Part shown: positions 22,360 through 52,567 of the stretch, one piece after another | How the letters are laid out: the number at the start of each line of letters is the position of its first letter | Numbering within the stretch: position 1 is the stretch's first letter | Assembly (NCBI GenBank): GCA_963697775.1 | Contig: CAVOPH010000016.1 | Location: forward strand, 25,190-89,189 | Length of the DNA: 64,000 nucleotides | Origin: an uncultured Acidobacteriota bacterium | GTDB taxonomy: Bacteria; Acidobacteriota; Vicinamibacteria; Vicinamibacterales; 2-12-FULL-66-21 | Direction: 5' to 3' | Notes under the pieces: model-generated | Database searches by the model: none | Seen by the model: only the letters and a program-made list of their open reading frames with translations | What the model was told of the DNA's origin: nothing | Program-made: the position numbers and the translations under genes

Positions 22360-22590
22360 GAACCCCTGATCACTGATCACTTATCCTGAATCCCTGCTCC
22401 CCGAATCCCTGATCGTTGAATCCCTCATCCTCGCATCACTGGATCCACGAATCCTTGAATCGCACGAGTCTTCGACTACACGCAGTTCAGTTCAGCGGGC
22501 AGGCTCCAACGAGGCTGCAATTTCTGGATTCGACGATTGGAGGATTCGACGATTAGCGATTCTCGATCAGTGATCAGTGATCAGGGATTC
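22360..22590. repeat. Inverted heptamer-repeat element with 22-bp terminal inverted repeats
   Basis: gaacccctgatcactgatcact (22360-22381) matches the reverse complement of 22569-22590 at 21/22; internal GAATCC / GATTC units. Confidence 0.75.
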
Positions 22591-24560: not shown

Positions 24561-24573
24561 TCAACAGCCTCCA

Positions 24574-24710
24574 AAACGCCTGCGAGGTTAGCTGACGGGC
24601 TGGAGGTTGAAGGTCCTCCTCCGAAATAGTCGGATATGCCCCTGACGAGCCGCTGACTCGTCCACTGGTTCCCCCGCTCCGCGCGTCTGGCCGCGGATTC
24701 GGCTCGTTCG
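24574..24710 (-). ncRNA. c-di-AMP (ydaO/yuaA) riboswitch in the kup leader
   Basis: Minus strand: GCCGAATCC..GGAGCGGGGGAACCA..GGGGCATATCC..GGAGGAGG..CCTCCAGCCCGTCAGCTAACCTCGCAGGC, then GGAGG SD and the kup ATG. Confidence 0.9.
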
Positions 24711-24806
24711 AGCATACGCCGGTGGCCCGGACGCGTCAAAATACGGCCGCCGGCCACGATCCACTCGTCTCGTCGGCGGAGTCGGCCGTCAGAACGCGCG
24801 GGAGGA

Positions 24807-25140: not shown

Positions 25141-25268
25141 AGGGTTCTACGGGGTTCGGCAGGGTTCTACAAGGTTCTGCAAGGTTCGTTCGGTTCTGCA
25201 AGGTTCGTTCGGTTCGCTCAGTCCTGAGAACGAACCCAGCCGAACCCTGCCGAACCTAGTAGAACCCA
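25141..25268. repeat. Inverted array of 10-nt repeats (GGTTCTRC / GYMGAACC)
   Basis: agggttctac ggggttcggc agggttctac aaggttctgc ... cgaaccctgc cgaacctagt agaaccc. Confidence 0.85.
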
Positions 25269-35103: not shown

Positions 35104-36327
35104 TCACCAGGTTCCTTTCTTGCCTCCGATCCACCACACCGCGCCGACGAGCGCGGTCGTCTGGCCGCGCTTCAGCACGTCGGTCGAACGGCTCGGAAAA
35201 AAGCTGGTGTCACTGGAGTCATGACGAAGTTCGCCGCGGATCAAGAATCCCTCGGCCACCTTGTGCTCGGCGGTGAGCGTGACTTCCTGGAGACCTTGAG
35301 AAACTCCGCCGAACAGTCCGCCGCTGTCGTCAAGGTACTCGTACCGCAGCGCGAAGCGCGCGGCAGCGAGCGGCTGATACCGTGCGTAGGCGGCAAAGCC
35401 GGTGAGCGTGGAGTTGGGATTGCCTTCCTGGAGCTGATTCGACGTGTGGTTCGCGTCAGCTCCCAGCGATACCCGGCTGGTTGGTGTGTAGGTGACGTAG
35501 GTGTCGAAAATGTGCAGCCACCCGTCGGGCCCGTCAGCCGCGCCGCCGTCAGGCTGTTCCTGGCCGAGGTAGTAGTTGATCGTCCAGCTGACGTTCTTCG
35601 ACGGTGTCACGACCGCGGCAAACTGGTGGGACTTGAACTCGTTGAAGTCCTCCGTCTGCTGCACGCCGTTGGTGAGCATGTACAACACGGTGATCCGATC
35701 GGTCAGCGTCACCTGGGTCCGGAGACCCGAGTGGTAGCCGGGAAGGAAGGCAAAGAGGAGCGACCGGGAGAAATGGTCGTCGTCTTTTGCGTAGTTGGTC
35801 TCGTAGCTGAAGTTCGAAGCGAACTTGCCGAAATCCACCTGCACGCGGCGCGAGCCCGGAAACACGTAAGAGCCGTACGCCTGCCACACATATCGGTATG
35901 CATCGGGCCTGGGCTCGTTGACCGACGAGCCCTGAGTGTTTTCCGTCGCCTCGCCGAACTGCAAATCGAGACGCAATCCGAAGGGCCGATTCTCTTTTCT
36001 ATCGGGCGCGCTTTCCACGACGAGCGCCGCCTGCTGGATGCCGAACGTGTTTGCGCGAGTGTCGTAAATTCGCAGAGTGTTCACGCGGTCAGGCGGCCGA
36101 TTCCAGTTGTACTCGTAGAAGCCCTCGAGCGTCGCGTTGAGGGTCCAGTGCGACAACGGATCATCCGGCTGCGCTGGATCCGCTGAGGTTTGTGCGTAGG
36201 CCGCCGGAATCGGAACCGCCAGGAAGCCGATGCTGACCGCCAGACCAGCTACTCTGAGGTAACGGAGTTCACAACGGAGGAACGAAGATAACGGAGACGA
36301 ACGGAAAAGATGCTCGCGGACGAGCAC
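35104..36327 (-). CDS. Putative outer-membrane beta-barrel porin (OmpL/BBP2-like); start uncertain
   Basis: Signal ending AAYAQ, FYEYNWNRP, DFGKF, LRYEYLDD, RGELRHD, C-terminal Trp. Confidence 0.8.
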   Translation of the reverse strand: MLVREHLFRSSPLSSFLRCELRYLRVAGLAVSIGFLAVPIPAAYAQTSADPAQPDDPLSHWTLNATLEGFYEYNWNRPPDRVNTLRIYDTRANTFGIQQAALVVESAPDRKENRPFGLRLDLQFGEATENTQGSSVNEPRPDAYRYVWQAYGSYVFPGSRRVQVDFGKFASNFSYETNYAKDDDHFSRSLLFAFLPGYHSGLRTQVTLTDRITVLYMLTNGVQQTEDFNEFKSHQFAAVVTPSKNVSWTINYYLGQEQPDGGAADGPDGWLHIFDTYVTYTPTSRVSLGADANHTSNQLQEGNPNSTLTGFAAYARYQPLAAARFALRYEYLDDSGGLFGGVSQGLQEVTLTAEHKVAEGFLIRGELRHDSSDTSFFPSRSTDVLKRGQTTALVGAVWWIGGKKGTW

Positions 36328-36379
36328 TTTTATCTTCGTTCGTCTCCGTTTGCTCCGTTCCTTCGTTGTGAACTCCGTT
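36261..36379. repeat. Imperfect palindrome of about 120 bp built of AACGGAG units
   Basis: aacggagttcacaacg (36261-36276) pairs exactly with cgttgtgaactccgtt (36364-36379); apex tgctcg-cgga-cgagca. Confidence 0.8.
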
Positions 36380-36562
36380 TCTCTGCTCAGTTCCGTTATC
36401 TCTCCGGGCAAATCCGATCGAGGGACTGAACGTGGCCGGAAAAAGCGTCGAGCGAGGGATGAGCAGTCCCCGGCGCGAATTGTCTCATTGTCGGCCGTAA
36501 ATGCATACACGAGTCGATTGACATAAGCTCGGAGAAAGGCGCAGGACGAGTCATTGCATCCC

Positions 36563-37519
36563 ATGACACATCATCACTCGGGCCATGGCCATCACCATTC
36601 CCACGGCCATGGCTCGGCGAGCGTGTCCAACCGAGTGCTGGGCGCCGCCGTCGCGGCGACGCTGGCATTCGTCATCGTCGAAGCGATTTCTGGCTGGATG
36701 GGTAACAGCCTGGCGCTGCTGTCCGACGCGGGGCACAACCTGGCGGATGTGGCGGCCCTGGGGCTCAGCTGGTATGCGCTCTGGATTGCCAGAAAGCCAT
36801 CGCATCAGGCGATGACGTTCGGGTATCACCGCGTCGGCGTGTTCGCCGCCCTCCTGAACGCCCTGTCGCTGGTAGTCATCGCGGCCTGGATTGGGTGGGA
36901 AGCGATCATCCGATTCCGTCATCCAGAGCCCGCGAGCGGCGGCCTGATGATAGGCGTGGCCGCTGCGGGGCTGGTGGTCAACACGGTCATTGGCTTGGGC
37001 CTGCGCCGTGCCTCGAAGCACGACATCAACGTCCGCAGCGCCTACCTGCACATGATGGGAGACGCGGTGTCTGCCCTCGGCGTCATGATCGCCGGCGTCC
37101 TGGTGGCGACTGCTCACATGCCCTTGGCCGACCCGATCGTGTCCCTCTTGATCGCGGCGTTGATTCTTTACAGCAGCTACGACGTGCTCAGGGAGAGTGC
37201 GGCGGTCCTGCTCGAAGGCACGCCCGCGGGCATGAACATGCCCGCGCTCATAGCGGCAATCAGAGGCGTCAGAGGCGTCCTCGATGTGCACGATCTACAC
37301 GTGTGGATGGTGGGCCCCGGTGTCATCGCCTGCAGCTGCCACATTGTCGTCGCCGAGCAGAGCATCCGAGAGGGACAGCAGGTGCTGCGAGCGGTCGTCC
37401 ATGACGTCGAACGCCTGTTTCACATCACCCATACGACGGTTCAGGTCGAAGTCGAAGGATGTGATGTAGACGACATGTACTGTGTGGCGTCACGGGTTGC
37501 CAGCGGACCACGGGCCTGA
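36563..37519 (+). CDS. Cation diffusion facilitator (CzcD/ZitB-like)
   Basis: His-rich N-terminus, SLALLSDAGHNLAD, TFGYHR, AYLHMMGD, HDLHVW, HTTVQVE. Confidence 0.93.
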   Translation: MTHHHSGHGHHHSHGHGSASVSNRVLGAAVAATLAFVIVEAISGWMGNSLALLSDAGHNLADVAALGLSWYALWIARKPSHQAMTFGYHRVGVFAALLNALSLVVIAAWIGWEAIIRFRHPEPASGGLMIGVAAAGLVVNTVIGLGLRRASKHDINVRSAYLHMMGDAVSALGVMIAGVLVATAHMPLADPIVSLLIAALILYSSYDVLRESAAVLLEGTPAGMNMPALIAAIRGVRGVLDVHDLHVWMVGPGVIACSCHIVVAEQSIREGQQVLRAVVHDVERLFHITHTTVQVEVEGCDVDDMYCVASRVASGPRA

Positions 37520-37542: not shown

Positions 37543-38688
37543 TCAAGGTGTTGGCTCACCAAGCGGTACGACCTGGATCGCGGCGTCGCGTACTTCCTCC
37601 AGGAACCTGTTGAGGGTCGAACCCTTCAGGAGAATTTCAAATCGGGTCCGCGCGCTCTGTCCAAAAATTACGTGCGTGATGCCCTCGCGCTGCGCGAACG
37701 CGATCAGGCCGTCCGCCGGGCGATCCGCTCTCACGCGCACTACCGTCGCGCCGAGTTCCTCGGCAAGTGCGATGTTCCGCTGCAACGCTTCCCGATCCCC
37801 AGCCCTGATCTGGCCGGGGGCTTCTCGGGGCGTCTCCACGTACACCGCGTACCACCGTGCCCCCAGCCGGCCAGCAATGCGCGCTCCCGTGCGAAGCACT
37901 CTCGGCGCATCGGCGTTGGAGCTCATGCAGACCATGACCCGTTCTGGAATGAGCGCCGGCTCGAGTCCTTCACGCTGCCGATGCGATGCCGCCTTCTCAC
38001 CCACTTCGTCGGCCACGGCGCGAAGGGCCAGTTCACGCAGCGTGGACAGGTTCGTTTCCCGGAAAAAGTTCGTGAGCGCCTGCTCGACCTTCTCGGGCTT
38101 GTAGATCTTGCCCTGCCGCAAGCGCGTACGGAGCTCCTCGACGGTGATGTCAACGTTGACGACCTCATCTGCGCGATCGAGGAATGTGTCTGGGACGGTC
38201 TCCCGAACACGCACGCCGGTCACGCGACCGACGGCATCGTTGAGCGTTTCGAGATGCTGGATGTTCACCGCCGTCATCACCCCGATGCCGGCGTCGAGGA
38301 TCTCGAACACGTCCTGATAGCGCTTTTCGTGGCGGCTGCCGGGGACGTTCGTGTGCGCGAGCTCGTCGATCATGCAGAGCGCCGGTTTTCGCGACAAGAT
38401 CGCCGCGACATCCATCTCCTCGAGGGTGACCCCGCGATAGTCGATCTTCCGGCGCGGAACGACCTCCAGGTCGCCGAGCTTCGCCTCGGTCTCCGCGCGT
38501 CCGTGGGTCTCGACGTATCCAATGACAACGTCGACGCCGTCACGCCGAAGTGCGTGGGCGTCCTCAATCATCGAATAGGTTTTGCCGACCCCGGGAGCGG
38601 CGCCGATGTAGATGCGGAGACGGGCGCGCTGGTCCGTCTGGATCTTGGCGAGCACCTGTTCGCCGGTGGGCCGGCTTCTGTCCTGCAC
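37543..38688 (-). CDS. kdpD: Stand-alone KdpD N-terminal domain + Usp domain (soluble half of a split KdpD)
   Basis: YIGAAPGVGKTY, VETHGR, DELAHTN, NIQHLE, RLRQGKIY, LRELALR, then a Usp domain; no TM or kinase. Confidence 0.93.
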   Translation of the reverse strand: MQDRSRPTGEQVLAKIQTDQRARLRIYIGAAPGVGKTYSMIEDAHALRRDGVDVVIGYVETHGRAETEAKLGDLEVVPRRKIDYRGVTLEEMDVAAILSRKPALCMIDELAHTNVPGSRHEKRYQDVFEILDAGIGVMTAVNIQHLETLNDAVGRVTGVRVRETVPDTFLDRADEVVNVDITVEELRTRLRQGKIYKPEKVEQALTNFFRETNLSTLRELALRAVADEVGEKAASHRQREGLEPALIPERVMVCMSSNADAPRVLRTGARIAGRLGARWYAVYVETPREAPGQIRAGDREALQRNIALAEELGATVVRVRADRPADGLIAFAQREGITHVIFGQSARTRFEILLKGSTLNRFLEEVRDAAIQVVPLGEPTP

Positions 38689-38725
38689 GGTTTCATCCTA
38701 GCTCGGCGTCTCAGCTCCGATACGG

Positions 38726-38767
38726 CTCTTTACGAACTCTTTATGCTTTTTTGGCTAACGGTTTAGC
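38726..38767 (+). promoter_or_regulatory. KdpE-like box A
   Basis: TTTACG-N5-TTTATG-N5-TTGGCT-N5-TTTAGC, 11-bp period. Confidence 0.65.
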
Positions 38768-38980
38768 GCTGAGGACGTTTGCCAACTCGATAGCGACGCT
38801 GATTCTTTCGGTCAATTGAATCGCGGCCGCGCGCGCTCGGAGTGCTATAGTCGCCTCACATCGAGACAGTCCGAAGTCGATCGGAACCCACCAACCGGGT
38901 TTTTCTGTCAGCCGGTTCGGTCGGGTCGGGGTTCGCCTGCGCTCCGCGCCGGAGCGTTTGGAATGAAAAAGCAGAGGACG

Positions 38981-39421
38981 ATGAAGATGCTGAAGAGAGT
39001 CTTGTTAGCCGGAGTCCTGGCCGCAGCCGTGAGCGGGACCGTCGCAGCCCAAGTGCACAAGTATTACTCGCCTGGCACGGTCTGGACCGTCACCATGATC
39101 AAAATCGCGTCCGGCATGGATCAGATGTACGTGCAGTATCTGGACGGTCAGTTCAAGAAGGGTGAGGATGCGTCGGTCAAGGCAGGGTTCCAGAAGTCGT
39201 ACAAGATCCTCCGGACGATGGACGATGGTGGTGCGTGGAACATGCTGATACTCAGGGAATATGCAAGCCTTGCCTCGCTCGAGGCAAACGAAGAGAAGGC
39301 CGATGCGCTCGCGCAGCAGGTCGAGGGCACCGACCAGGTCCAGATGCAGGGGTATCAGGACCGCAGCAAGTACCGCGAAGTCGTCGGCACCAAGTACGCG
39401 CGCGAGCTGATCCTCAAGTAG
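38981..39421 (+). CDS. Secreted hypothetical protein
   Basis: GAGG SD, signal peptide ending AAQ, biased codon use; TATAGT -10 candidate near 38846. Confidence 0.8.
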   Translation: MKMLKRVLLAGVLAAAVSGTVAAQVHKYYSPGTVWTVTMIKIASGMDQMYVQYLDGQFKKGEDASVKAGFQKSYKILRTMDDGGAWNMLILREYASLASLEANEEKADALAQQVEGTDQVQMQGYQDRSKYREVVGTKYARELILK

Positions 39422-39516
39422 CGGGTGATAGACGACGGCGGCATCCGCGCCGTCGTCGTCACCGCTCGCATCTGAATTCTTTCACCAGCGTTTTGCCGCT
39501 CACAAGAGGAACGACC

Positions 39517-39973
39517 ATGTACAACGCTGTGATAGTCGATCGGGTTGACCGCCTTCCTCCAAAGCCAGCCTGCCAGCCCGGACAAGATCGCCGTGATGTC
39601 TGTGGTGCATCAGTTCACCGATGCCTTCAACAAAGGGGACACGAAAACGGCGGCGGCCGCGTGTGCGGATCAAACGTCGATCATCGATGAATTCCCGCCC
39701 CACGAATGGCACGGCGCCGGCGGCTGTGCAAAATGGATGACCGACTACGACGCGGACGCCAAGAAGAATGGCCTCAGTGACGGACACGTCACCCTCGGTA
39801 CACCGAAGCACGTCAACGTCGTAGCGGATCGGGCCTACGTAGTCGTTCCGGCGGATTATGCGTACAAGGAAAAGGGAAAGCCTGTGAAGGAGACCGGCTC
39901 CATCTTCACGGTCGCCCTGCAGAAGGTTGTGACCGGCTGGCGCATCACCGGCTGGTCGTGGACCAAGAATTAG
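39517..39973 (+). CDS. SnoaL/NTF2-like protein; indel near the N-terminus
   Basis: FTDAFNKGD, IIDEFPPHEWHG, DRAYVVVP, GWRITGWSW; GAGGA SD before the ATG at 39517. Confidence 0.8.
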
Positions 39974-40030
39974 TCGTCAGCGCGCTCCTGCCAGCTTTCA
40001 TCCCAGCGTGCCACATTGGCGCGCCCGCGT

Positions 40031-40089
40031 CTCTTTACGAACTCTTTATGGTTTTTTGGCGAACCGTTTAGCCGTTCGAGGCTTAGCGT
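40031..40089 (+). promoter_or_regulatory. KdpE-like box B with -10 candidate TAGCGT
   Basis: TTTACG/TTTATG/TTGGCG/TTTAGC at 40034/40045/40056/40067, then N11 and TAGCGT (40084-40089). Confidence 0.65.
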
Positions 40090-40095
40090 CAGGCT

Positions 40096-40390
40096 GTGGA
40101 CAGGCCTGAAGACAGCGCTGTCAGCGCATCCGTCGAGACGGACGCGACCATCTCGCACTTCATTCCCTCGGTGGAATTGACGGGATCCCGTAACGAGAAG
40201 CTGCGGAAACTCGACACCCTGATCCTGCTATCTCGAGAAACTCCGCGCCAGCCTCGCGCGCGATACTCACAAAAGACGCCGTCCGTCGCCCGAGCGCGCA
40301 CGTCCGGTGTGGGGCTGGTTCGCGGCAGGCGTGGTGGTGGGAGCGGTCGTCGTTTTACTGTTCTTCGCCGGCGGCCGCTGGGCCTTATGA
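40096..40390 (+). CDS. Putative ~97-aa tail-anchored membrane protein (one indel near 40228)
   Basis: MDRPEDSAVSASVETDATISHFIPSVELTGSRNEKLRKLDTLIL/YLEKLRASLARDTHKRRRPSPERARPVWGWFAAGVVVGAVVVLLFFAGGRWAL*; GTG 6 nt after the -10. Confidence 0.55.
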
Positions 40391-40439
40391 CTTCTTTACG
40401 AAGTCTTGACCGCCTTCTTACGGCTGGGCGACCTACGCT
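40384..40439 (+). promoter_or_regulatory. KdpE-like box C with -10 candidate TACGCT (kdp operon promoter)
   Basis: CTTATG/TTTACG/TTGACC/CTTACG at 40384/40395/40406/40417, then N11 and TACGCT. Confidence 0.7.
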
Positions 40440-40479
40440 GAATGACAGACGAAAGGAGCCTTTTGTGGCACTGAGAGAG

Positions 40480-41245
40480 ATGACTCGCGCACTGCTGGCG
40501 GTCGGATTGTTCGGACTCGTACCGGTCGCCGCGTACGCGACGCCGTCCACGACGTACTGGGCGCCCTCCACGGCCTCGTGTCAGGCGCGGGGAGTCCCGC
40601 ACGTCACCTACGACACGTACTTCTGGAAGGGCCCGGCGGCCGGCGCTCAAGGCGCGACCGGCTATCCCATCGACACGGGCCTGACCGCGGGCGTTCTGCC
40701 GTTCGAGAAGGTGCAGGGTGAAGTCGGCTTCGACCTGCTGCTCCCCAGCCGTATCCGTTCTTCCTCAACATGAAGCTCTGCACGCCGGAGTCCTCGTTGT
40801 TCAAAGGGTCGCCCGGCATCAGTTTCGGCATCTACAACTTGGGCTTCAAGGATGATGTCAGCAATTACAACGTGCTGCATCTCATGTTCCAGAAGGCGTT
40901 CCCAAAAGGCGGCTACTTTGCGGCGGGCGTGTACCACGGTTTGAACAGACACGCTCATGACCAACAGCGACGGCAACGTCGTCAAGACCGGCGCGATGAT
41001 CGCCGCGGTCTCGCCCGACATCCAAGATCGGTCTCAAAGGTCTGAAGAAGATCAACATCGCCACGGATGTGCAGACGGGCAAGAACGTGCTCGGAGCCTG
41101 GGGCTTCGGCACGAACATCTATTTTGCTGACAACGTGTCGCTCCTGGTTGGCCCGGTGTTCTTCCTGGACAAGAACCTGCAGCCGGGTGGCACCAAGTAC
41201 ATGTGGACGGCGCAGCTCGATATCGACATCCCGCTGGGTCGTTGA
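40480..41245 (+). CDS. Secreted, probably outer-membrane beta-barrel protein leading the kdp operon; about 3 indels
   Basis: Signal MTRALLAVGLFGLVPVAAYA, TPSTTYWAPST; alternating strands (EVGFDL, ISFGIYN, GFGTNIYF, WTAQLDIDIP). Confidence 0.7.
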
Positions 41246-41280
41246 GCAACGGTGCTGTGTTTGAGGAAGGCAGGATACAC

Positions 41281-41370
41281 GTGTCCGACTTCATTTTCGT
41301 CGCGCTGACAATTCTCTTCTTCGCCGTGAGCATCGGCTACGTGGCCGTGTGCGACCGGCTCATGAAGTGA
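41281..41370 (+). CDS. 29-aa single-TM peptide upstream of kdpF
   Basis: MSDFIFVALTILFFAVSIGYVAVCDRLMK*, with AGGA SD; not in the ORF track. Confidence 0.75.
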   Translation: MSDFIFVALTILFFAVSIGYVAVCDRLMK

Positions 41371-41378
41371 GGTGACAC

Positions 41379-41469
41379 GTGGGCATCGACACCGCTCTCA
41401 CTCTAGCTCGTCAGCATTCTCACGCTCGGTTACCTCGTGCTCGCGATGCTGAAACCGGAGAAGTTCTGA
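41379..41469 (+). CDS. kdpF: KdpF subunit (one extra base near 41405)
   Basis: MGIDTALTL/LVSILTLGYLVLAMLKPEKF*, ending 1 nt before the kdpA ATG; GAGG SD. Confidence 0.88.
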
Positions 41470-41470
41470 C

Positions 41471-43253
41471 ATGACTCTCAACGGCTGGCTACAGATTCTC
41501 TTCTTTCTGCTCGCCATCTTTCTCGTGACGCCGGTGCTTGGCGGCTACATGGCGCGCGTGTTCAACCGGCAGCGCACGTTCCTCGATCCGGTGATGCGCC
41601 CGCTCGAGCGGCTCGTCTACCGGCTGACCGGTGTCAACGAGGCGCGCGAGATGCGCTGGACCGAGTACTCGGTCGCGCTGCTCCTCTTCAGCGTCGTCTC
41701 GATGCTGGTGCTGTACGTGATGCAGCGTGTGCAGGCGGTGCTGCCGTTCAACCCGCAGGGATTTGCCGGCGTCGCGCCGGATCTCGCCTTCAACACCGCC
41801 GCGTCGTTCACCACCAACACGAACTGGCAGGCGTACAGCGGCGAGTCGACGATGAGCTACTTCACGCAGATGGCGGGGCTCGCGTATCACAACTTCGTGT
41901 CGGCGGCGGTCGGCATCTCGGTGGCCATCGCGTTCATTCGCGGCATCGCCCAGAAAGAGAAAGACACGATCGGCAACTTCTGGGTGGACCTGGTGCGCGC
42001 GTCGCTCTGGGTGCTGCTGCCGATCTCGATCGTCGGCGCTTTGTTCCTGGTCTCGCAGGGCGTGGTGCAGAACCTCAAGCCGTACGACAAGGTCGCGGTC
42101 GTCGATCCGCAGACCGTGACGACGACCGGCGCCGACGGCAAGCCGCAGTCGCAGAAGGTCACCGAACAGACGATCGCGCAGGGGCCGATCGCCTCGCAGG
42201 AGATCATCAAGCAGTTCGGCACGAACGGAGGCGGGTTCCTCAATGCGAACAGCGCGCACCCGTTCGAGAACCCGACGCCGCTGACGAACTTCCTCGCGAT
42301 GTTCGGCATCTTCGCGATTTCGTCGGGGCTCACCTACACGCTCGGCTCGATGACCGGGTCGAAGCGTCATGGCTGGGCGGTCTGGGCGGCGATGGCGTTT
42401 CTCTTCCTCGCGGGCGTCACGACGGCGTACTGGGCTGAAGCGCGGGGGAACCCGATGCTGACCGCTGCCGGCGCCGACCAGACGACAACGGCGACGTCGC
42501 CTGGCGGCAACATGGAGGGCAAAGAGGTCCGTTTCGGCATCGCCAACACGGCGCTCTTCGCCACCGTCACCACCGACGCGAGCTGCGGCGCCATCAACGG
42601 CTGGCACGACTCGTTCACCCCGCTCGGCGGGCTCGTCCCGCTCGCCAACATCGAGTTGAGTGAAGTGGTCTTCGGCGGTGTCGGCGCGGGCATGTACGGC
42701 GTGTTGGTCTACATCATTCTCTCGGTCTTCATTGCCGGATTGATGGTCGGGCCGAACACCGGAATATCTCGGCAAGAAGATTCAGGCGTTCGAGGTGCAG
42801 ATGGCCATGTTGACCGTGCTGATCTTCTCGCTGCTCATCCTGGCCTTCACGGCGACGTCATCGGTGTCGCCGAGCTTCGGGACCTCGAGCATCTTCAACC
42901 CCGGCCCGCACGGGTTGTCCGAAATGCTCTACGCCTACTCGTCGGCCGCGGCGAACAACGGCTCGGCGTTCGGCGGCATCAGCGTGAACACCCACTGGTA
43001 CAACACGACGCTCGGGTTGACGATGCTGTTCGGACGGTTCTTCATGATCATTCCGCCGCTGGCGATCGCTGGAAGCCTGAGCCGGAAGAAGAAGATTCCC
43101 GAGTCGCTCGGCACGTTCCCCGTGACGACGCCGCTCTTCACGGCGTTGCTCGTCGGCGTGATCGTGATCGTCGGGGCGCTGACGTTCTTCCCGGCGCTCA
43201 GCCTGGGCCCGATCGTTGAGCACTTCATGATGAACGCGGGGCAGGCCTTCTAA
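41471..43253 (+). CDS. kdpA: K+-transporting ATPase subunit A; indel near 42750
   Basis: [58 protein letters not shown]. Confidence 0.97.
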
Positions 43254-43344
43254 GGAATGCTGATTGTTGAATGCTGAATGCTGATTGATCTGGCTGAGAC
43301 GAAAACAGACAACCGCTGACAGACAGGTTCAAGGACGAGTTTCC

Positions 43345-45447
<2,103 letters not shown>

Positions 45448-45458
45448 GAGGCACTATC

Positions 45459-46040
45459 ATGAACATCACACGCAACCTCATCTCGGCCATCCTGATGACG
45501 ATCGTCACCACGGTGATCCTGGGGGTGATTTATCCCCTGGCGATCACGGGCATCGCGCAGGTCGCGTTTCCCAGTCAGGCCAACGGTCAGCTGATCGAGC
45601 GGAACGGATCCGTGATCGGGTCGCGGATCATCGGGCAGGGATTCTCGTCGCCGGGATACTTTCGTCCGAGGCCGTCAGCCGCCGGAACGGGCTACGACGC
45701 GGCCAATTCGGCGGGCAGCCAGCTCGGGCCCACGAACAAGAAGCTGATCGACAACGTCAAGGCCAATGTCGAAGCCGCACGCAAGGAGAACCCGAACGCG
45801 CCTGTCCCCATCGACCTCGTGACGACGTCGGCCTCCGGATTCGATCCGCACATCACGCCCGCCGCGGCCGACTTTCAGGTACCGCGGGTGGCCCGCGAGC
45901 GTGGCGTCTCCGAGGCGGACGTGAGGCGTCTGGTGGATGCCAACACGCAAGGGCGGCAGCTCGGCTTCTTTGGAGAGGCGCGGGTCAACGTGCTCGAGCT
46001 GAATCTCGCGCTCGATTCGCAGTATCCGCTCAAGAAGTAG
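45459..46040 (+). CDS. kdpC: K+-transporting ATPase subunit C
   Basis: [55 protein letters not shown]. Confidence 0.96.
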
Positions 46041-46165
46041 TCAGGGCTTGCGAAACACGACGAGCCACCAGAGGTCCTCGTCGCCGGATCGATCGATGAA
46101 CGGATCCTCGCGAAGGACCGTCTGGAATCCTTGCTGATTGATTTGACGTTCGGCCACGGCCCGGG

Positions 46166-46696
46166 TCATCTCGTGATGCCCCTCGGCCGTGGTAGCGGGT
46201 TTCGACCACCACTGCGCGGGGCCCGATCGACGACGACCAGCCTGCCGCCAGGACGCATCGACGTGTAGAGCGCTTTCAGAATCTGCTCCGGCGCGGTCAG
46301 CTCGTGATAGGTGTTCGCGATCAGCACGGCATCGACTGGCGTCGGCGGAAGCTTCGGATCGTCGACACGGCCGCGAATGACGTGAAGGTTCCAGTGCCCG
46401 CCGAGCACGGCTCGGATCCATAGAAAGGCCAGCGATTGCCTGCGGAGATCGACCGCGAGGACGCGGCCGTTCGGGGCCACGCGAGGGGCGATCTTCAATG
46501 AGAAGTAGCCCGCGCCCGAGCCCAGATCGACGACCGTCATCCCGGGATGCAGATCGAGTTGTCGAAGGATCTCGTCCGGCCGTTGCCACGAGTCGCGTTC
46601 GCGTTCCACCCTGTCGAGCGTGCCCAGCGTACGCACCACTTCTTCCAGCACAAACACGGCTGGAACCACGATAACGACCAACGTGAGGATTCCCAC
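46166..46696 (-). CDS. Class I SAM-dependent methyltransferase with N-terminal hydrophobic segment
   Basis: ERDSWQRP, VVDLGSGAGYF, NTYHEL, RPGGRLVVVD. Confidence 0.85.
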   Translation of the reverse strand: MGILTLVVIVVPAVFVLEEVVRTLGTLDRVERERDSWQRPDEILRQLDLHPGMTVVDLGSGAGYFSLKIAPRVAPNGRVLAVDLRRQSLAFLWIRAVLGGHWNLHVIRGRVDDPKLPPTPVDAVLIANTYHELTAPEQILKALYTSMRPGGRLVVVDRAPRSGGRNPLPRPRGITR

Positions 46697-46878
46697 ACAG
46701 ACGTTTCGTCACGTGACATCGATCCTGTCAGAAACGGCGAGTCGGGAACCGGTCACCGATGAACCGGTCATGCTATCGTCTGCTTTCGTGAGGTTTCAGC
46801 TCGTCAACCAGTCTGTTTGCTCGGCCCCTGATTCTGCGTCGCGCTACCCGGCGTCGGGCTGTGTGCTCGCGCGCGGTC

Positions 46879-47720
46879 ATGATGAGCGTGGCGACGAGCT
46901 GCACCAACTCGCCGGAAACGGCGCTCGAACGGCTCATGGAATCGCGCCGCCTCGCGGCGGATCTCCTGGTTCAGTTCACCAAGGCCGCTGACGCCTCGAA
47001 TCGCGCGGTGATGGCGGACACCGACGAAGCCTCCGTCGCGTTCGCCCGTGAGGCCGAGCAGGCCACGCAGGCGGTCGAAAAAGACGCCGCCGCGCTGGAT
47101 CCGATTCTTCGCGGCCTCGGCTACTCGAACGAAACGCGGCTGCTCGAGGAATTCAACAGCCGCTTTGCGGAGTATCGCGCGCTGGACCGCAAGATCCTCG
47201 AGCTGGCGGTCGAGAACACGAATCTCAAGGCGCAGCGTTTGTCGTTCGGGCCCGCTCAAGAGGCAGCCGACGCGTTCCGCGATTCCGTTGCGGCCGTCGC
47301 GCCACTGGATCCGGCGAAGGATACGTGGCGCGTGAAGGCGCTGGCCGCGACCGCTATCGGCGGCCGTGCGCGAGATCCAGGTGCTTCAGGCGCCACACAT
47401 CGCGGAAGCCGACGAGGCCGTGATGACTCGAATCGAGAAACAGATGGCAACCGAGGAAGCGGCGGCCCGGAGCGCGTTGGCGAACCTGGGAACCGTGGCG
47501 CAGCCCGCATCCCGTCCGCAGCTCGACGCCGCCACCGCCGCGCTCGACCGGTTCATGGGCATCAACGCTCAAATCATCGAGCTGTCCCGCCGCAACACGA
47601 ACGTTCGCTCGCTGGCGCTGGCGCTGGGCCAGAAGCGGACGCTTCACCGCCGCGTGCGAGGACCGCCTGCATGCGCTTCAGGACGCTCTGGCGAAGCGCG
47701 AGTTCACTGCCACTCGATAG
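46879..47720 (+). CDS. Stand-alone chemoreceptor-like helical (4HB/HBM-like) ligand-binding protein, possibly a lipoprotein; indels, start uncertain
   Basis: Internal duplication ILELAVENTNLKAQRLS / IIELSRRNTNVRSLALA; ATSC near the N-terminus; no signalling domain. Confidence 0.6.
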
Positions 47721-47726
47721 GATCCA

Positions 47727-47831
47727 GATTCTGCTGGGTTCTACAAGGTTCTGCTGGGTTCTACGAGGTTCGTGGCTTCAACGCTTCGACGAACGAACCT
47801 TGCCGAACCCGGTAGAAACCAGTAGAACCCG
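47727..47831. repeat. Inverted array of 10-nt repeats between convergent genes
   Basis: gggttctac aaggttctgc tgggttctac gaggttcg ... gaacgaacc..ccgaaccc ggtagaaacc agtagaaccc. Confidence 0.85.
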
Positions 47832-47835
47832 GTCT

Positions 47836-48519
47836 TCAGAGGTCCGCAAATCGATATCCAACCCAGGGTTCCGTGAGGATGTATCTGGGAGCGGACGGAT
47901 TCGGCTCGATTTTCTTTCGCAGCGATCCGACCAGCACTCGCAGGTGCTCGGGCTGATCGACGAAATGCGGGCCCCAGATCGCCTTGAGGATGGTCCGATG
48001 GGTCAGCACGCGCCCGGGGTGCTGCGCCAGAAAGGTGAGCAGCTCGAATTCCTTGGGAGTCAGGCGCACTTCTTCGCCGTCTCGGAGAACCCGGAATCGT
48101 TCGCGATCGATGACGAGGCCGCCGCGCACGATCGGTTCGGTCGCCGGTGACGGATTCTCGATCCGACGCAGCGTCGCGCGAATACGTGCCAGCAGTTCAT
48201 CGGTCCCGAACGGCTTCGTCACGTAGTCGTCCGCACCCGCGTCCAGTGCGCCGACCTTGTCGCCTTCGGCCCCGCGCGCGGACAGCACCAGGATCGGTAC
48301 GTTCGACGTCTCTCGCACCAGCCGGCACACTTCGACACCATCGATGTCCGGCAAACCCAGATCGAGCACGATCAGATCCGGTTTGTCGCGCTCGACGGCT
48401 TCCAGCGCGGCTCGACCGGTCATGGCCGAGAAGACCTCGTATCCTCGCGCCCGCACCAGCGGCGCCAGCGTGCCGAGGATGTTCGGTTCGTCGTCGACGA
48501 TGAGGATGCGCGCCGCCAT
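47836..48519 (-). CDS. kdpE: KdpE response regulator (OmpR family)
   Basis: LDLGLPDIDG, LDAGADDYVTKPF, LTPKEF, VLTHR..IWG, LRKKIE..P.YILTEPWVGYRF. Confidence 0.93.
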   Translation of the reverse strand: MAARILIVDDEPNILGTLAPLVRARGYEVFSAMTGRAALEAVERDKPDLIVLDLGLPDIDGVEVCRLVRETSNVPILVLSARGAEGDKVGALDAGADDYVTKPFGTDELLARIRATLRRIENPSPATEPIVRGGLVIDRERFRVLRDGEEVRLTPKEFELLTFLAQHPGRVLTHRTILKAIWGPHFVDQPEHLRVLVGSLRKKIEPNPSAPRYILTEPWVGYRFADL

Positions 48520-48521
48520 CG

Positions 48522-50030
48522 CTACTGCGCCACCGTGACCGGACGCACGGCTCCAGGCACGACGATCGAAAACCTCGCGCCGGCCCCGGGCACGTTCTCG
48601 GCCCAGACACGTCCACCCGCTGCGGCCAGTAGTCCCCGCGTGATCGAGAGTCCCATTCCGGTGCCGAAGGTAGCCTGGCGTGCGGCGCGTCCTCGGTAGA
48701 ACCGTTCGAAGAGATGATCGAGCTCGGCCGGATCGAGTCCGGGGCCCTGATCGGTAACCGAGACGTGCAGCCCGTCACGTTCCACCTGGGCGCCCACGAC
48801 GATCGCCTTGGCCGGGGGCGAATACAGGGCCGCGTTTTCGAGCAGGTGCGACAGTGCGACCGATGCCAGTCTCGGATCGATCTCCACCGTCATGTCGGTG
48901 TCGGCATCGACGCTGAGCGCGTGCCCCTCCAGCGTGTGTCTGACGAGCGCGACCGCCGCATCGACCACGTCGGCGGCGGCAACCCACTGCCGTTCGACGT
49001 GAATCGCGGCCGCGTCGATCCGGGCCATGTCCAGGATGTCCTGGAACAGGCGCGTCAGCCGATCGAGCTCGGCCATCGCGGCGCCAGCCTGGACGCGGCG
49101 ATCCTCGGCCGCGAGCTCGCCTCGAAGGTTCTCGACCGCGGCTTTGATCGCCGTCAACGGCGTTCTCAGGTCGTGGCTCAGTGATGCCAGCAAGGTCGCC
49201 CCGAGATCGGCCTTCTGTCTGACGAGCTCAGCCGCGTCACGTTCCGCGAGGAACTGCGCCCGCTCGATCGCAATCGCGACGACGCCGGCGACGGCGTCGA
49301 GGGTGCCGATGTCGAGCGACGGCGAGGCCGCAGCGAGCAGACCGACCGGCCGGGTTCCGTGTCTCAACGGAACGATCGACACCTCATTGTTCGCTCCGAC
49401 GCGGATGTGGCCGCCGTACGCCCGTTGATGCGCGTCGAATTCGAGCGTCCCGCGGGCCTTGGCCAGGGCCGTATTCAGCACGTTCTCGTCGATCGAGACC
49501 TCCTCGCTCGCGCCCTGGTGGATGTGCCAGCCGTGATCGCCGGGAAGGCAGATCGCGACGCGCTCCAGTTCGAAGCGACGGGCGACATGCCGCGCGAGCA
49601 CGTCGATGGCACTCGCCGTTTCAGTGGTCAACAACACATCCCGTGTCAGATCGAACAGGCGCGTCACTTCGTTGCGGCGCGCGATCGCCTCGCGGGCCTT
49701 GTCCTGCGCCGCCGCTGACAGATTGCTGGCAATCACCGCGACGATCAGGAACGCCACCAGGGCGATCCAGTTCTGGGGATCGGCGATCGTAAACGTGCCG
49801 ACCGGAGGGAGAAAGAAGAAGTTCAGCGTGAGCATCGCGACGATCGACACCACGATCGCGATCCGAAGACGTGCGAGGGTCGCGGCGCCGAGCACGACCA
49901 GCAGCAGCGCGAGCGCAACGGTCGTCGGGCTCACGTCGCGCAGCGCGCGGAGCGCAGCGGTCACCGCAGCAAGCGCGACGATGCTCCCAAGAAAGACGAT
50001 GAGGTCGCGTGTCGGTCTCCGACGGAGCAT
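48522..50030 (-). CDS. kdpD: Membrane sensor kinase half of KdpD (DUF4118 4TM - GAF - HisKA - HATPase)
   Basis: NFFFLPPVGTFTIADPQNW, SHDLRTPLT, LLENAALYS, DQGPG, GTGMGL; directly upstream of kdpE. Confidence 0.92.
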   Translation of the reverse strand: MLRRRPTRDLIVFLGSIVALAAVTAALRALRDVSPTTVALALLLVVLGAATLARLRIAIVVSIVAMLTLNFFFLPPVGTFTIADPQNWIALVAFLIVAVIASNLSAAAQDKAREAIARRNEVTRLFDLTRDVLLTTETASAIDVLARHVARRFELERVAICLPGDHGWHIHQGASEEVSIDENVLNTALAKARGTLEFDAHQRAYGGHIRVGANNEVSIVPLRHGTRPVGLLAAASPSLDIGTLDAVAGVVAIAIERAQFLAERDAAELVRQKADLGATLLASLSHDLRTPLTAIKAAVENLRGELAAEDRRVQAGAAMAELDRLTRLFQDILDMARIDAAAIHVERQWVAAADVVDAAVALVRHTLEGHALSVDADTDMTVEIDPRLASVALSHLLENAALYSPPAKAIVVGAQVERDGLHVSVTDQGPGLDPAELDHLFERFYRGRAARQATFGTGMGLSITRGLLAAAGGRVWAENVPGAGARFSIVVPGAVRPVTVAQ

Positions 50031-50086
50031 GTTCTCAAGGCAATTCTGACATCTCACGCCGGCCGTGCGGCATCGCCGCTCAACTT

Positions 50087-50131
50087 CTTATCGATTCTTT
50101 ACGGATTTCTTACGCGCACGGGCGGTAAGGT
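50087..50131 (+). promoter_or_regulatory. KdpE-like box D with -10 candidate TAAGGT
   Basis: CTTATC/TTTACG/CTTACG at 50087/50098/50109, then N11 and TAAGGT. Confidence 0.7.
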
Positions 50132-50148
50132 TGAAGAGCAGGCCGAAC

Positions 50149-50493
50149 ATGCAGATGCTCATTTCGCTCCCCGCGTCCGGCGCCCCTTCGCGGGAACTCG
50201 GTCCGATCCTGTCGGACTATCTGGCGCTCGATCGTGCACGAATCGTCCGGCGGCTGATGGTGGCGCGTTTCGGCGTGCTGGCGCTGTTGGCGGCACTGAT
50301 CGAGACCGTCTTTCGCGGGTTCTCTCCCTTCGCCCGCGTGGTCACCGTCGCCCTGTGCCTCGTTCCTCCCGCCTGGGCACGGATCGTCGAACTCGGGCGC
50401 GAGCATCGCCTGTCGCGGCGCCTCGAACGCGTCGATGGAGTCGTTACCCACAAATATGTCCCTCGGTCCGAAGGCCATCAGGGCTCCGCATAA
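50149..50493 (+). CDS. Small two-TM hypothetical membrane protein
   Basis: 114 aa; hydrophobic FGVLALLAALIETVF and VVTVALCLVPPAW; follows box D. Confidence 0.65.
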   Translation: MQMLISLPASGAPSRELGPILSDYLALDRARIVRRLMVARFGVLALLAALIETVFRGFSPFARVVTVALCLVPPAWARIVELGREHRLSRRLERVDGVVTHKYVPRSEGHQGSA

Positions 50494-50516
50494 GAAAGTC
50501 GTAAAAAGTTCATAAG
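50489..50516 (-). promoter_or_regulatory. KdpE-like box E (reverse orientation), upstream of the kimA leader
   Basis: Minus strand CTTATG-N5-TTTACG-N5-CTTATG; CATAAT -10 candidate at 50557. Confidence 0.65.
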
Positions 50517-50567
50517 TACGGGCTGCCGCGCTCGCCGAAATCCGGCGGTTTCCTCGCATAATCACGA

Positions 50568-50718
50568 CAGTGCCAAATTCGCTTCGCTGGTCGAAGCGAT
50601 GCGGGGGACCCACTCGAGCATTCCGCTCGTCGGGGCGTATCCCACCGAAGTGCCGCAAGGCGCGAAGGTGGGTAGAGGATTCCAACCTCGAGCCCGTCAG
50701 CTAACCCCGTCGGCCGAT
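50568..50718 (+). ncRNA. c-di-AMP (ydaO/yuaA) riboswitch in the kimA-like leader
   Basis: GCCAAAT-hairpin-TGCGGGGGACCCA..TCGGGGCGTATCCC..GGGTAGAGG..CCTCGAGCCCGTCAGCTAACCCCGTCGGC, then GGAAGGA and ATG. Confidence 0.9.
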
Positions 50719-50728
50719 TGGAAGGACC

Positions 50729-52567
50729 ATGCCGGCAGAAGGCCTGCTCTCGCAAGCCAAGCGGCTCGTCGTCGGCGAGCCGATTCCGTCACATCTCGCA
50801 CACCATGAACGGTTCTCGCGATTCACCGGCCTCGCGGTGCTGTCCTCCGATGCCCTGTCGTCGGTGGCCTACGCGACGGAAGAGATCCTGCGCGTCCTCG
50901 TTCTGGTCAGCGTTGGCGTGCTGAGCTTCGCGACGCCGATCGCGTTCGTCATCGCCGCCATTCTGGCCATCGTCGTCTTTTCCTATCGACAGACCATTCA
51001 CGCCTACCCGAGCGGCGGGGGCGCCTACATCGTCGCGAAGGACAATCTCGGAGAGATGCCGGCGCTCATCGCCGCGGCGTCGCTGCTCATCGACTACGTG
51101 CTCACGGTGGCGGTCAGCATCGCGGCCGGTGTCGCGGCCCTCACGTCGGCCTTCCCGCAATGGCACGTGAACCGCGTCGAGATGACGCTGGGGTTCGTGC
51201 TGGTCCTGATGCTCGGCAATCTGCGCGGGATCAGAGAGTCGGGCCGGATCTTTGCGATCCCCACGTACATGTTCGTGGTCAGCCTTCTCGGCTTGATCGC
51301 GGTCGGGACGTGGCGGGCGCTCAGCGGCACGATTCATCCGATCGCCGCCGTGCAGCCGATTCAGCCTGCCGGCGACACGCTGACCCTGTTCCTGCTTCTG
51401 ACTGCGTTTTCCAACGGGTGCACGGCGATGACCGGCGTAGAGGCGGTGTCGAACGGCGTTCCCGCATTCAAACCGCCGGAAGCGAAGAACGCCGCGGCGA
51501 CGATGGTGATGATGGCGGTGCTGTCGATCACGATGTTCGTCGGCATCACGCTGCTCGCGCACGCGTATCACATCGTCCCGAGCGAGCAGGAAACCGTCGT
51601 GTCGCAGATTGCGCGAGGCGTCTTCGGCGGACGAGGGTGGCCGTACTACGCCGTCCAGGGCGCGACGATGCTGATTCTCGTCCTGGCCGCGAACACCGCG
51701 TACGCTGATTTTCCGCGGCTCGCGTCGATCCTCGCGCGCGATCGCTACGTGCCGCGACAGCTCATGAACCAGGGGGATCGCCTCGCGTTTTCGAACGGCA
51801 TCATCGGGCTGAGTGCCTTCGCGTCAATTCTGCTCGTCGCTTACGGCGGCGATACACACTCGCTGATTCCGCTCTACATGATCGGCGTCTTCGTGTCGTT
51901 CACGTTGTCGCAGGCCGGCATGGTCGTCCACTGGCGAAAGCTGAAAGGGCCGGGATGGAGGACCAGCGCGTTCATCAACGGCCTCGGCGCTGTCGTCACC
52001 GGCATCGTCCTCGTCGTCGTCGCCCTCACGAAGAGCCGCGAAGGCGCATGGATCATCCTGCTGCTCATTCCGGTCCATGTGTTTCTGTTTCGAGCGACCC
52101 GCCGACATTACGACGAAGTCGCGCGGCAGCTGTCGCTCGACGGGTGGACAAATGGCACGAGGCACCGCAACACCGTGCTCGTGCCGATGAGCGGCGTGCA
52201 CCGGGCCGTGGTCCAGGCGCTCGAGTACGCGAAGACGTTGTCGCCAGACGTGCGAGCGGTCTACGTCAACATCGATCCGGCCGCGACGGAACAGCTGTCG
52301 CGTCAGTGGAAGAAGTGGGGCGACGGGGTTCCGCTCGTGGTGCTCGAGTCACCGTACCGCTCGCTGATGGAACCGCTGCTCGAATACATCGATCAGGTCG
52401 ATGCCGCGCAACCGGACGATTTCGTGACGATCGTCTTACCCGAGTTCGTGCCGGCGCGCTGGTGGCATCACGTCTTCCACAACCAGCGTGCGCTGCTAAT
52501 CAAGGGTGCGCTGCTCTTCCGGCCGAACGTCGTCGTCACCAGTGTGCCGTTTCATCTGAATCGTTGA
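50729..52567 (+). CDS. kimA: KimA/YdaO-like APC-superfamily K+ transporter
   Basis: SSDALSSVAYATEEI, SYRQTIHAYPSGGGAY, LTVAVS, TGVEAVSNGV, SPYRSL, LPEFV..WWH..FHNQ. Confidence 0.9.
   Translation: MPAEGLLSQAKRLVVGEPIPSHLAHHERFSRFTGLAVLSSDALSSVAYATEEILRVLVLVSVGVLSFATPIAFVIAAILAIVVFSYRQTIHAYPSGGGAYIVAKDNLGEMPALIAAASLLIDYVLTVAVSIAAGVAALTSAFPQWHVNRVEMTLGFVLVLMLGNLRGIRESGRIFAIPTYMFVVSLLGLIAVGTWRALSGTIHPIAAVQPIQPAGDTLTLFLLLTAFSNGCTAMTGVEAVSNGVPAFKPPEAKNAAATMVMMAVLSITMFVGITLLAHAYHIVPSEQETVVSQIARGVFGGRGWPYYAVQGATMLILVLAANTAYADFPRLASILARDRYVPRQLMNQGDRLAFSNGIIGLSAFASILLVAYGGDTHSLIPLYMIGVFVSFTLSQAGMVVHWRKLKGPGWRTSAFINGLGAVVTGIVLVVVALTKSREGAWIILLLIPVHVFLFRATRRHYDEVARQLSLDGWTNGTRHRNTVLVPMSGVHRAVVQALEYAKTLSPDVRAVYVNIDPAATEQLSRQWKKWGDGVPLVVLESPYRSLMEPLLEYIDQVDAAQPDDFVTIVLPEFVPARWWHHVFHNQRALLIKGALLFRPNVVVTSVPFHLNR

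Follow-up and report, generated by a model that had tools for sequence, protein, structure and literature searches.

In Escherichia coli the response regulator KdpE binds TTTATA-N5-TTTACA at -72 to -50 of the kdp promoter (PMC3264566), and it has been described, from SELEX (systematic evolution of ligands by exponential enrichment), as a regulator with a single target (PMC5934670). The KdpE site of Mycobacterium smegmatis spans 22 bp; the authors of that work found it unlike other KdpE motifs and reported only one target, with a promoter of the SigF type (PMC5401905). Here we describe a kdp locus in a stretch of 64,000 nucleotides (hereafter the window; positions 25,190 to 89,189 of contig CAVOPH010000016.1, assembly GCA_963697775.1) from an uncultured bacterium, in which five arrays of hexamers repeated every 11 bp stand beside the genes for the K+ pump KdpFABC, a split KdpD sensor, KdpE and a KimA-like K+ importer. 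The organism belongs to the Acidobacteriota, probably to the order Vicinamibacterales, because a quick tree sets one same-order KdpE beside one from Vicinamibacterales and the same-phylum genomes among named Acidobacteriota.

Related arrangements are known from other regulators. In Salmonella, PhoP acts as an activator both from direct boxes lying 11-12 nt before the -10 element and from reverse boxes at 30, 37 and 47-58 nt (PMC3335776), and tandem dimers of PhoP, GlnR and PhoB (2, 4 or 6 protomers) displace sigma region 4 (PMC11825685, PMC4415409). A cyclic di-AMP (c-di-AMP) riboswitch controls kimA and kdpFABC in Bacillus (RF00379; PMC6488665); the window shares the riboswitch before kimA and adds a KdpE array to it. 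Split KdpD, with the KdpD/Usp and membrane-kinase halves as separate genes, is common in Acidobacteriota, and in E. coli the serine-kinase half inhibits KdpB at high K+, for which co-expression with the pump has been proposed to matter (PMC11018627). Compared with the split systems already known, the serine-kinase half in the window is divergent from the pump and would be coupled to it by a shared array, not by read-through. KdpE boxes, pho-type tandem repeats, reverse boxes, the riboswitch and split KdpD are each already known, and KdpE boxes at kdp promoters are an ordinary result; the main interest lies in a testable site in E. coli and in a switch of binding specificity.

Phased arrays in the kdp locus and their predicted regulator

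All five arrays that a first-pass annotation had placed at 38729, 40034, 40384, 50087 and (reverse) 50516 are present, and the period is 11 bp in each. Array A1 (38729-38767, forward strand) has four units, TTTACG/TTTATG/TTGGCT/TTTAGC, and A2 (40034-40072, forward; TTTACG/TTTATG/TTGGCG/TTTAGC) is its four-unit duplicate. Array B (40384-40422, forward), the predicted main kdpFABC promoter, reads CTTATG/TTTACG/TTGACC/CTTACG. The remaining two have three units each: C (50087-50114, forward; CTTATC/TTTACG/CTTACG), which would serve both directions, and D (50489-50516, reverse; CTTATG/TTTACG/CTTATG), which is inverted relative to kimA. The consensus YTTAYG proposed for the units fits 12 of the 18 strictly; the other six deviate (the last unit at 40034, for example, is TTTAGC).

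The strict pair YTTAYG-N5-YTTAYG occurs seven times in the 5.46-Mb genome, and six of these pairs lie inside the 12-kb kdp locus (window 38601-50600), where chance predicts 0.0006 (0.28 genome-wide). Other spacers between 0 and 20 give 0-2 pairs genome-wide; within the locus such pairs are found only at spacer 16 (= 5+11), twice. A 39-bp matrix built from 18 modules (17 loci) of other families finds six sites above 12 bits in the window genome – the five arrays and one blaI-like promoter – and array B has the best score in the genome (38.3 bits), while the seventh strict pair of the genome (C15) is absent from the matrix matches. The concern that the motif might be common throughout the genome was checked by both pair count and matrix scan, and both confine it to the kdp locus. 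The sixth match, at window 7680 (19.9 bits), is a T-rich divergent promoter before a pair that we named by eye as blaI/blaR1-like. A wider regulon was considered and set aside: 13 isolated strict pairs outside the relatives' kdp loci, and one far upstream of a kdp locus, were treated as chance because they have no consistent third unit, -10 or shared gene.

A close KdpE was found in 28 of 61 genomes, and 28 loci were mapped. In these related loci boxes stand before kdpF, beside kdpD-N (the gene for the soluble half of KdpD), before small genes and before kimA, their positions constant while the spacers diverge. In one relative (locus L031 of genome G015) both small genes carry internal deletions (7431-7590 and 15546-15731) and all arrays and -10s are intact, which suggests that the promoters may matter more than these proteins. 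Four KdpE-like loci (G003, G032, G044 and G060a; 69-75% identity) lack a strict pair, and their surroundings gave no match to kdpA or kimA. Elsewhere, L035 (G005) carries two kdpDE pairs side by side, the second with a four-unit array 11 nt before a weak -10 (GACAGT) of its own kdpD. An extra three-unit array precedes a hydrophobic open reading frame (ORF) of about 48 aa without an NCBIfam match at L037:7038 and L038:13026, which adds a third type to the small proteins encoded behind KdpE-type boxes.

The window KdpE (47836-48519, reverse strand; recognition helix EHLRVLVGSLRKK) has 4KNY as its best PDB match (E=1.6e-59) and, as befits a cognate regulator, lies adjacent to both kdpD halves and kdpABC. 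Alignment to 4KNY shows that the equivalents of R193, R200 and T215 are kept; E. coli KdpE needs R193 to bind DNA, and this residue has been proposed to read bases (PMC3264566). The E. coli site, cited in the first-pass annotation as having the same period, indeed does so: common to both are 6-bp half-sites, the 11-bp period, a (T/C)TTA start, adjacent kdpABC and kdpDE, and the three residues. The window differs in having three or four adjacent units that run into the -35 region, a G at position 6, about six predicted promoters in place of one, and inverted use.

Recognition helices were compared in 78 KdpE-like proteins. Seven of them have EHLWTLV in place of EHLRV; each of the corresponding loci contains YTSAGG pairs, none has a YTTAYR pair, and most carry a four-unit array with a 10-nt gap. 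The single EHLWVLV locus has TTTAGG units, and no YTSAGG pair occurs in 18 R-type loci (281 kb). The eight W-type proteins form one clade (quick tree; Shimodaira-Hasegawa-like approximate likelihood ratio test, SH-aLRT, 90, and 99 for the seven) that spans several families and includes one genome of the window's own genus; the box therefore follows the kdpE allele, not the host. The site is conserved upstream of kdpFABC in relatives and, within this one clade, tracks the kdpE allele. The change from YTTAYG to YTSAGG together with R193W makes KdpE very likely the binder, and the assignment of the boxes to a local KdpE regulon is favored by location, conservation, likeness to tested sites and helix/box co-variation alike. 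We consider it highly probable that KdpE binds the arrays. The R193W/YTSAGG pair also offers a test of base recognition by OmpR-family helices, and is a candidate orthogonal regulator-operator pair.

Predicted forward and inverted use of the arrays

In three arrays the last unit is followed, as first proposed, by exactly 11 nt and a TAnnnT word on the forward strand: the predicted -10s are TAGCGT (40084-40089) past A2, TACGCT (40434-40439) past B and TAAGGT (50126-50131) past C. The fixed 11-nt gap holds within the KdpE clade of the window, where 15 of 35 array ends have TAnnnT at gap 11 and a single one has it at any other gap from 6 to 19 (the remaining 20 ends are mostly reverse-used arrays or weak -10s); it does not extend to the phylum or to E. 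coli-type promoters, where the gap is 10 nt. Direct repeats that take the place of the -35 and end 10-12 nt before the -10 have the class II geometry of OmpR/PhoB promoters, and the proposed layout of three to four repeats covering the -35 region is well supported by comparison. The forward arrays reach about -24, unlike a single E. coli-type pair at -72 to -50 only; this is a variant layout and not another regulator. Salmonella PhoP shares both the direct boxes 11-12 nt from a -10, replacing the -35, and the reverse boxes at about 30 and 37 nt; relative to PhoP, GlnR and PhoB the regulator and the half-site differ. For KdpE, no description of a class II or reverse-box layout was found in the literature searched.

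Arrays A1 and D had been left without a -10, yet each has one on the opposite strand at a conserved distance, as does array C. A1, which has no -10 on its own strand, lies inverted 28 nt upstream of the kdpD-N -10 (TAGGAT, 38695-38700, reverse), itself 6 nt before the GTG start, so that a leaderless mRNA is predicted. On this strand all nine orthologous sites have TAnnnT 27-29 nt past the inverted pair and only a few bases ahead of the start codon; in the tenth site compared, A2 of the window, the leftward -10 has decayed to TGGGAT. Array C is inverted 37-39 nt from the -10 of the gene for the membrane half, kdpD-C, in six of six loci; in the window the predicted extended -10 of kdpD-C/kdpE (TGTCAGAAT; 50043-50051, reverse) places its CAGAAT hexamer at 38 nt. 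The third case is array D, 40 nt upstream of the predicted -10 (CATAAT, 50557-50562, forward) of the riboswitch-kimA transcript, an inverted arrangement with 38-40 nt in 12 of 22 riboswitch leaders compared; five of the other ten have forward units (L046, L047, L049, L051, L067) and five lack this unit type. The distances 28 and 39 nt are one helical turn apart. Array D as a class II promoter of kdpD-C through the small gene was ruled out: there is no own-strand -10 in any orthologue compared, and the distance to the kdpD-C -10 is 255-466 nt.

Inverted arrangements are not confined to this phylum. Of 31 cross-phylum loci, nine have an inverted KdpE-type pair ahead of kdpA; all nine are from Actinomycetota, and four of them have a loose -10 word at 29 nt. 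In the mycobacteria, the M. aurum orthologue of the M. smegmatis site runs opposite to kdpA, and a -10-like word lies 29 nt downstream of it, compared with 28 nt for A1.

The first-pass annotation counted the arrays at 38729 and 40034 as separate boxes. They are instead two copies of one two-way promoter: 38681-38767 and 39986-40072 form an 87-bp duplicate, about 75% identical and including the kdpD-N -10, and the five arrays thus amount to four independent sites. A1 has retained the leftward -10 and A2 the rightward one, whereas G015 has a single site with both; each copy of the duplicated promoter would have kept one direction.

We propose that at low K+ KdpD-C phosphorylates KdpE, and that tandem dimers then fill the arrays head-to-tail on their 11-bp direct repeats and activate some six promoters, of which inverted arrays would serve three. 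In forward (class II) use, three or four KdpE protomers would line up in tandem so that the final one stops 11 nt short of the -10, stands in for a -35 and contacts sigma region 4, by analogy to PhoP complexes (PMC11825685); such use would drive the small gene at 40096, the operon of the exported protein and kdpFABC, and the gene for a 114-aa protein. In inverted (class I) use, an array 28 or 38-40 nt upstream of the kdpD-N, kdpD-C/kdpE and kimA -10s would reach polymerase from upstream. One array might turn on the pump in one direction and, in the opposite one, KdpD-N, the serine kinase that would later inhibit it, so that the shared array would supply the co-expression coupling of KdpD-N and pump. 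Expression of kimA would amount to an AND gate of phosphorylated KdpE and low c-di-AMP. A compact regulon of this kind, in an uncultured lineage, would likely comprise the pump, both sensor halves (the inhibitory kinase among them) with the regulator, riboswitch-gated KimA and two unstudied small membrane proteins. MgrB is a precedent for feedback by a small protein, and a similar role for the two small proteins is a guess by analogy. The model builds on observed sequences, spacing, conservation, gene identities and co-variation; from these we infer binding, activation (not repression), start sites and contacts with RNA polymerase. As a whole we give it a probability of roughly 0.8.

Candidate KdpE promoters elsewhere and the weight of the alternatives

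Across the phylum, KdpA matches were found in 109 of 301 genomes, giving 80 upstream regions of up to 4.1 kb each, and a strict sense-strand pair is present in 25 of the 80 (0.4 expected). When 28 anchors were defined on units 1 and 2 only, unit 3 was found at +22 in 14, unit 4 at +33 in 18, and TnnnnT at +49 in 19, compared with one at +50. From these offsets the phylum layout is four units, 10 nt and a -10, the 11-nt gap being a clade trait. The 39-bp matrix, applied to the other 63 phylum loci, scores 22 above every shuffle, and 15 of these 22 have TnnnnT at +49. By eye, seven loci (L191, L195, L242 and L264 of family f38; L220, L241 and L243 of family f48) have an E. coli-like spacing with TTGAY-type units, in which roughly one turn separates two pairs and the -10 follows after 10 nt; their KdpE helices are of the HYLRV(Y/F)MAQ type.

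The E. coli promoter itself had been taken to differ from a multi-repeat layout. Upstream of kdpF, however, TTTATA-N5-TTTACA is followed by 15 nt, a matching degenerate pair TTTGCG-N5-TTTGCA (+32/+43), 10 nt and TACCCT, a predicted -10 that the published position of -72 to -50 places at -12 to -7. We assembled a set of 87 loci, made up of E. coli itself, 10 records from a plasmid collection and loci retrieved from metagenomes with E. coli KdpA as query; 46 have a forward pair. Among 51 anchors a half-site stands at +32 in 21 and at +43 in 32, and TAnnnT at +59 in 29. Keeping the 41 strict anchors and dropping nine near-duplicates left 32, of which 18 are distant from E. coli: 23 of the 32 have the half-site at +43 (mostly TTTACG), which ends 10 nt ahead of the -10, and 18 have TAnnnT at +59, other offsets reaching three at most. 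The proximal pair was also considered as an ordinary -35, and rejected, TTG at the canonical 17-bp spacing occurring in 0 of 32 anchors. Two points speak against a functional proximal site in E. coli: each proximal half-site has one mismatch in the TTTA core (single mismatches gave partial binding), and the footprint covers -72 to -50 only (PMC3264566). The true difference from the window may be one helical turn between two dimer sites. The conserved proximal pair, which the one-site model leaves out, makes for a cheap test of KdpE activation in E. coli.

Read along its opposite strand, the 22-bp site of M. smegmatis is TTGATG-N5-TTTACG; for Sinorhizobium fredii KdpE the available part of the report maps no binding position (PMC9239096). 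Taking these comparisons together, KdpE promoters across bacteria might accommodate two dimers, of which the proximal would substitute for the -35 with its end 10-11 nt from the -10, on sites that are adjacent in most Acidobacteriota with the module and one turn apart in E. coli and its kin; E. coli kdpFABC would then have an overlooked, required site at about -39 to -23 (TTTGCG-N5-TTTGCA), arrays would work backwards on divergent promoters, and R193W plus a change of the next residue to T would recode YTTAYG to YTSAGG. As a joint claim this stands only a little above even odds. The literature searched, which did not cover older subscription papers, supplements and regulon databases, gave no description of the proximal E. 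coli pair, the four-unit KdpE layout, KdpE boxes in Acidobacteriota or the W-type switch. In E. coli K-12 (L059) a further TTGATG-N5-TTTACA lies 89 nt upstream of the known site, and is also seen in two close metagenome loci.

The 11-bp period is general to the OmpR/PhoB family (PMC4415409) and the genome encodes further members, so the repeats might be read by another regulator of this family or another winged-helix protein (PhoB-like, for example), acting alone or in competition with KdpE. Confinement of the motif to the kdp locus, and its change with the adjacent kdpE allele but not with taxonomy, render this very improbable; a Pho regulon in particular is at odds with half-sites that differ from CTGTCAT, the PhoB box, and have matches confined to the kdp locus. 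We give still less credence to the idea that no specific protein is involved, whether the repeats are structural (AT-rich DNA in phase with the helix that bends or resembles UP elements) or words that arose by chance against a GC-rich background. The arrays are T-rich with a near-helical period, units 3 and 4 are degenerate and the T-rich blaI promoter also scores, but neither structure nor chance accounts for specific hexamers, strand polarity, fixed distances to the -10 and the concerted switch to YTSAGG. It is somewhat easier to imagine, though still unlikely, that KdpE binds all five arrays and only the three forward ones activate, the inverted ones being repression sites or by-products of compact divergent promoters with constitutive extended -10s. 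Indeed, the TG-extended kdpD-C -10 is kept where array C is absent (L035, L037-L039), the M. smegmatis kdpD promoter is KdpE-independent (PMC5401905), and back-to-back promoter spacing could persist for other reasons. Against this, array D, without an own-strand -10, keeps three good units at its distance from the kimA -10 across divergent spacers, and the units of A1 survive after loss of the forward -10; the inverted arrays are placed farther upstream than the -35 region, at positions from which bound KdpE would not obstruct polymerase, and the inverted Actinomycetota pairs before kdpA tell the same way.

Several observations weigh against the proposed model or qualify it. The best NCBIfam model for the window protein is KdpE at 215 bits, below the cut-off of 325, the protein differs from that of E. 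coli at Y191H and H198S, and this 67%-complete genome holds at least 12 other winged-helix-region matches. The helix/box switch lies in a single clade and represents one or two events, not eight. A backwards-pattern control in the same genome returned five pairs to the seven true ones; the signal therefore rests on clustering and conservation, not on the genome-wide total. Several predicted -10s are weak, and 41 of the 80 phylum loci have no four-unit module within about 4 kb, some of them having E. coli spacing and others being unexplained. A Caulobacter KdpE motif from chromatin immunoprecipitation (ChIP) is unlike these boxes (bioRxiv 2023.07.05.547876). Finally, kimA or kup has a forward box in three relatives (L046, L067, L051), and in four relatives without the small gene array D faces kdpD-C at a variable gap of 40-50 nt, which makes the target and the sign of array D less sure.

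Genes of the locus and neighboring features

Genes were identified from Pfam, NCBIfam, PDB and Rfam matches. From left to right the locus comprises a BBP2 porin, a cation-efflux gene, kdpD-N (reverse), A1, two extra genes, A2, a small gene and B; then an exported protein, a 29-aa peptide, kdpF, kdpA, kdpB, kdpC, a methyltransferase and a four-helix-bundle protein; and last kdpE and kdpD-C (both reverse), C, the 114-aa gene, D, the riboswitch and kimA.

The soluble serine-kinase half, kdpD-N (37543-38688, reverse), has KdpD and Usp domains (PF02702, PF00582) and scores 436 bits with NF038185, below the cut-off of 550. We take the Walker A motif to be kept in KdpD-N and the TGES serine in the window KdpB. 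The Usp domain was considered as a c-di-AMP binder and set aside: it has the E. coli-type RxxxR-x8-WxAVY motif and not SxS-x20-FTAxY, which is not decisive because a short Deinococcus KdpD is c-di-AMP-controlled (PMC11018627). The membrane histidine-kinase half, kdpD-C, occupies 48522-50030 (reverse).

Between the duplicated promoter copies lie two forward genes (38963-39973; an exported protein of 152 aa and a SnoaL-like one of 142 aa) that were not found in the 28 related loci. They are followed by the small gene of about 97 aa (40096-40390, forward), which has a C-terminal hydrophobic helix, no Pfam match and one frameshift here, and whose stop codon overlaps array B; it is intact in L041 and L060. 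A putative exported or outer-membrane protein (40465-41245, forward; three frame pieces, no Pfam match) is 92-96% identical in L041. The 29-aa membrane peptide, kdpF (frameshifted), kdpA (frameshifted), kdpB and kdpC follow at 41281-46040 (forward). The frameshifts, which affect kdpA and kdpF among others, resemble assembly errors, because the small gene and kdpF are intact in relatives. The peptide itself (41281-41370) is conserved and directly precedes kdpF in many relatives.

The uncharacterised 114-aa hydrophobic protein (50149-50493, forward) ends inside array D, where its stop codon lies. It belongs to no Pfam family, and its Atlas matches are under 0.9, none of them informative; in an alignment of the family (n=29) the C-terminus is HKKVVKSS in seven homologs and IRKS, IKKS or VRKS in another three, which is array D translated. 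With 42 homologs for this protein and 9 for that of about 97 aa, both are real families. The c-di-AMP riboswitch RF00379 (50561-50729, forward; 60.9 bits, gathering score 38) precedes the KimA-like importer (50729-52567, forward; B. subtilis KimA 6S3K, E=1.1e-167), and the genome encodes one diadenylate cyclase, the combination expected of a c-di-AMP riboswitch that governs kimA.

A second c-di-AMP riboswitch (24562-24714, reverse; 68.1 bits) lies before a frameshifted Kup-like K+ transporter (about 22581-24560, identified by eye); its promoter is a plain TTGACG-17-TATGCT with no KdpE pair, and a leader of the same sort in G001 (L051) contains a pair, the second unit of which is that -35. The four-helix-bundle protein (46800-47650), sensor-like and without a signalling domain, travels with kdp loci (also L031, L032, L034, L035, L041, L053-L055 and L058), and in W-type loci it seems to be served by an array of its own. 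Outer-membrane or exported genes of different families accompany kdp as well (window 35104-36564 and 40465-41245; L035:10930-11830), and the BBP2 porin gene is found after kdpD-N in G015 and before kdpF in many phylum loci. At window 27338-27424 a tRNA overlaps the end of a long flotillin-like ORF.

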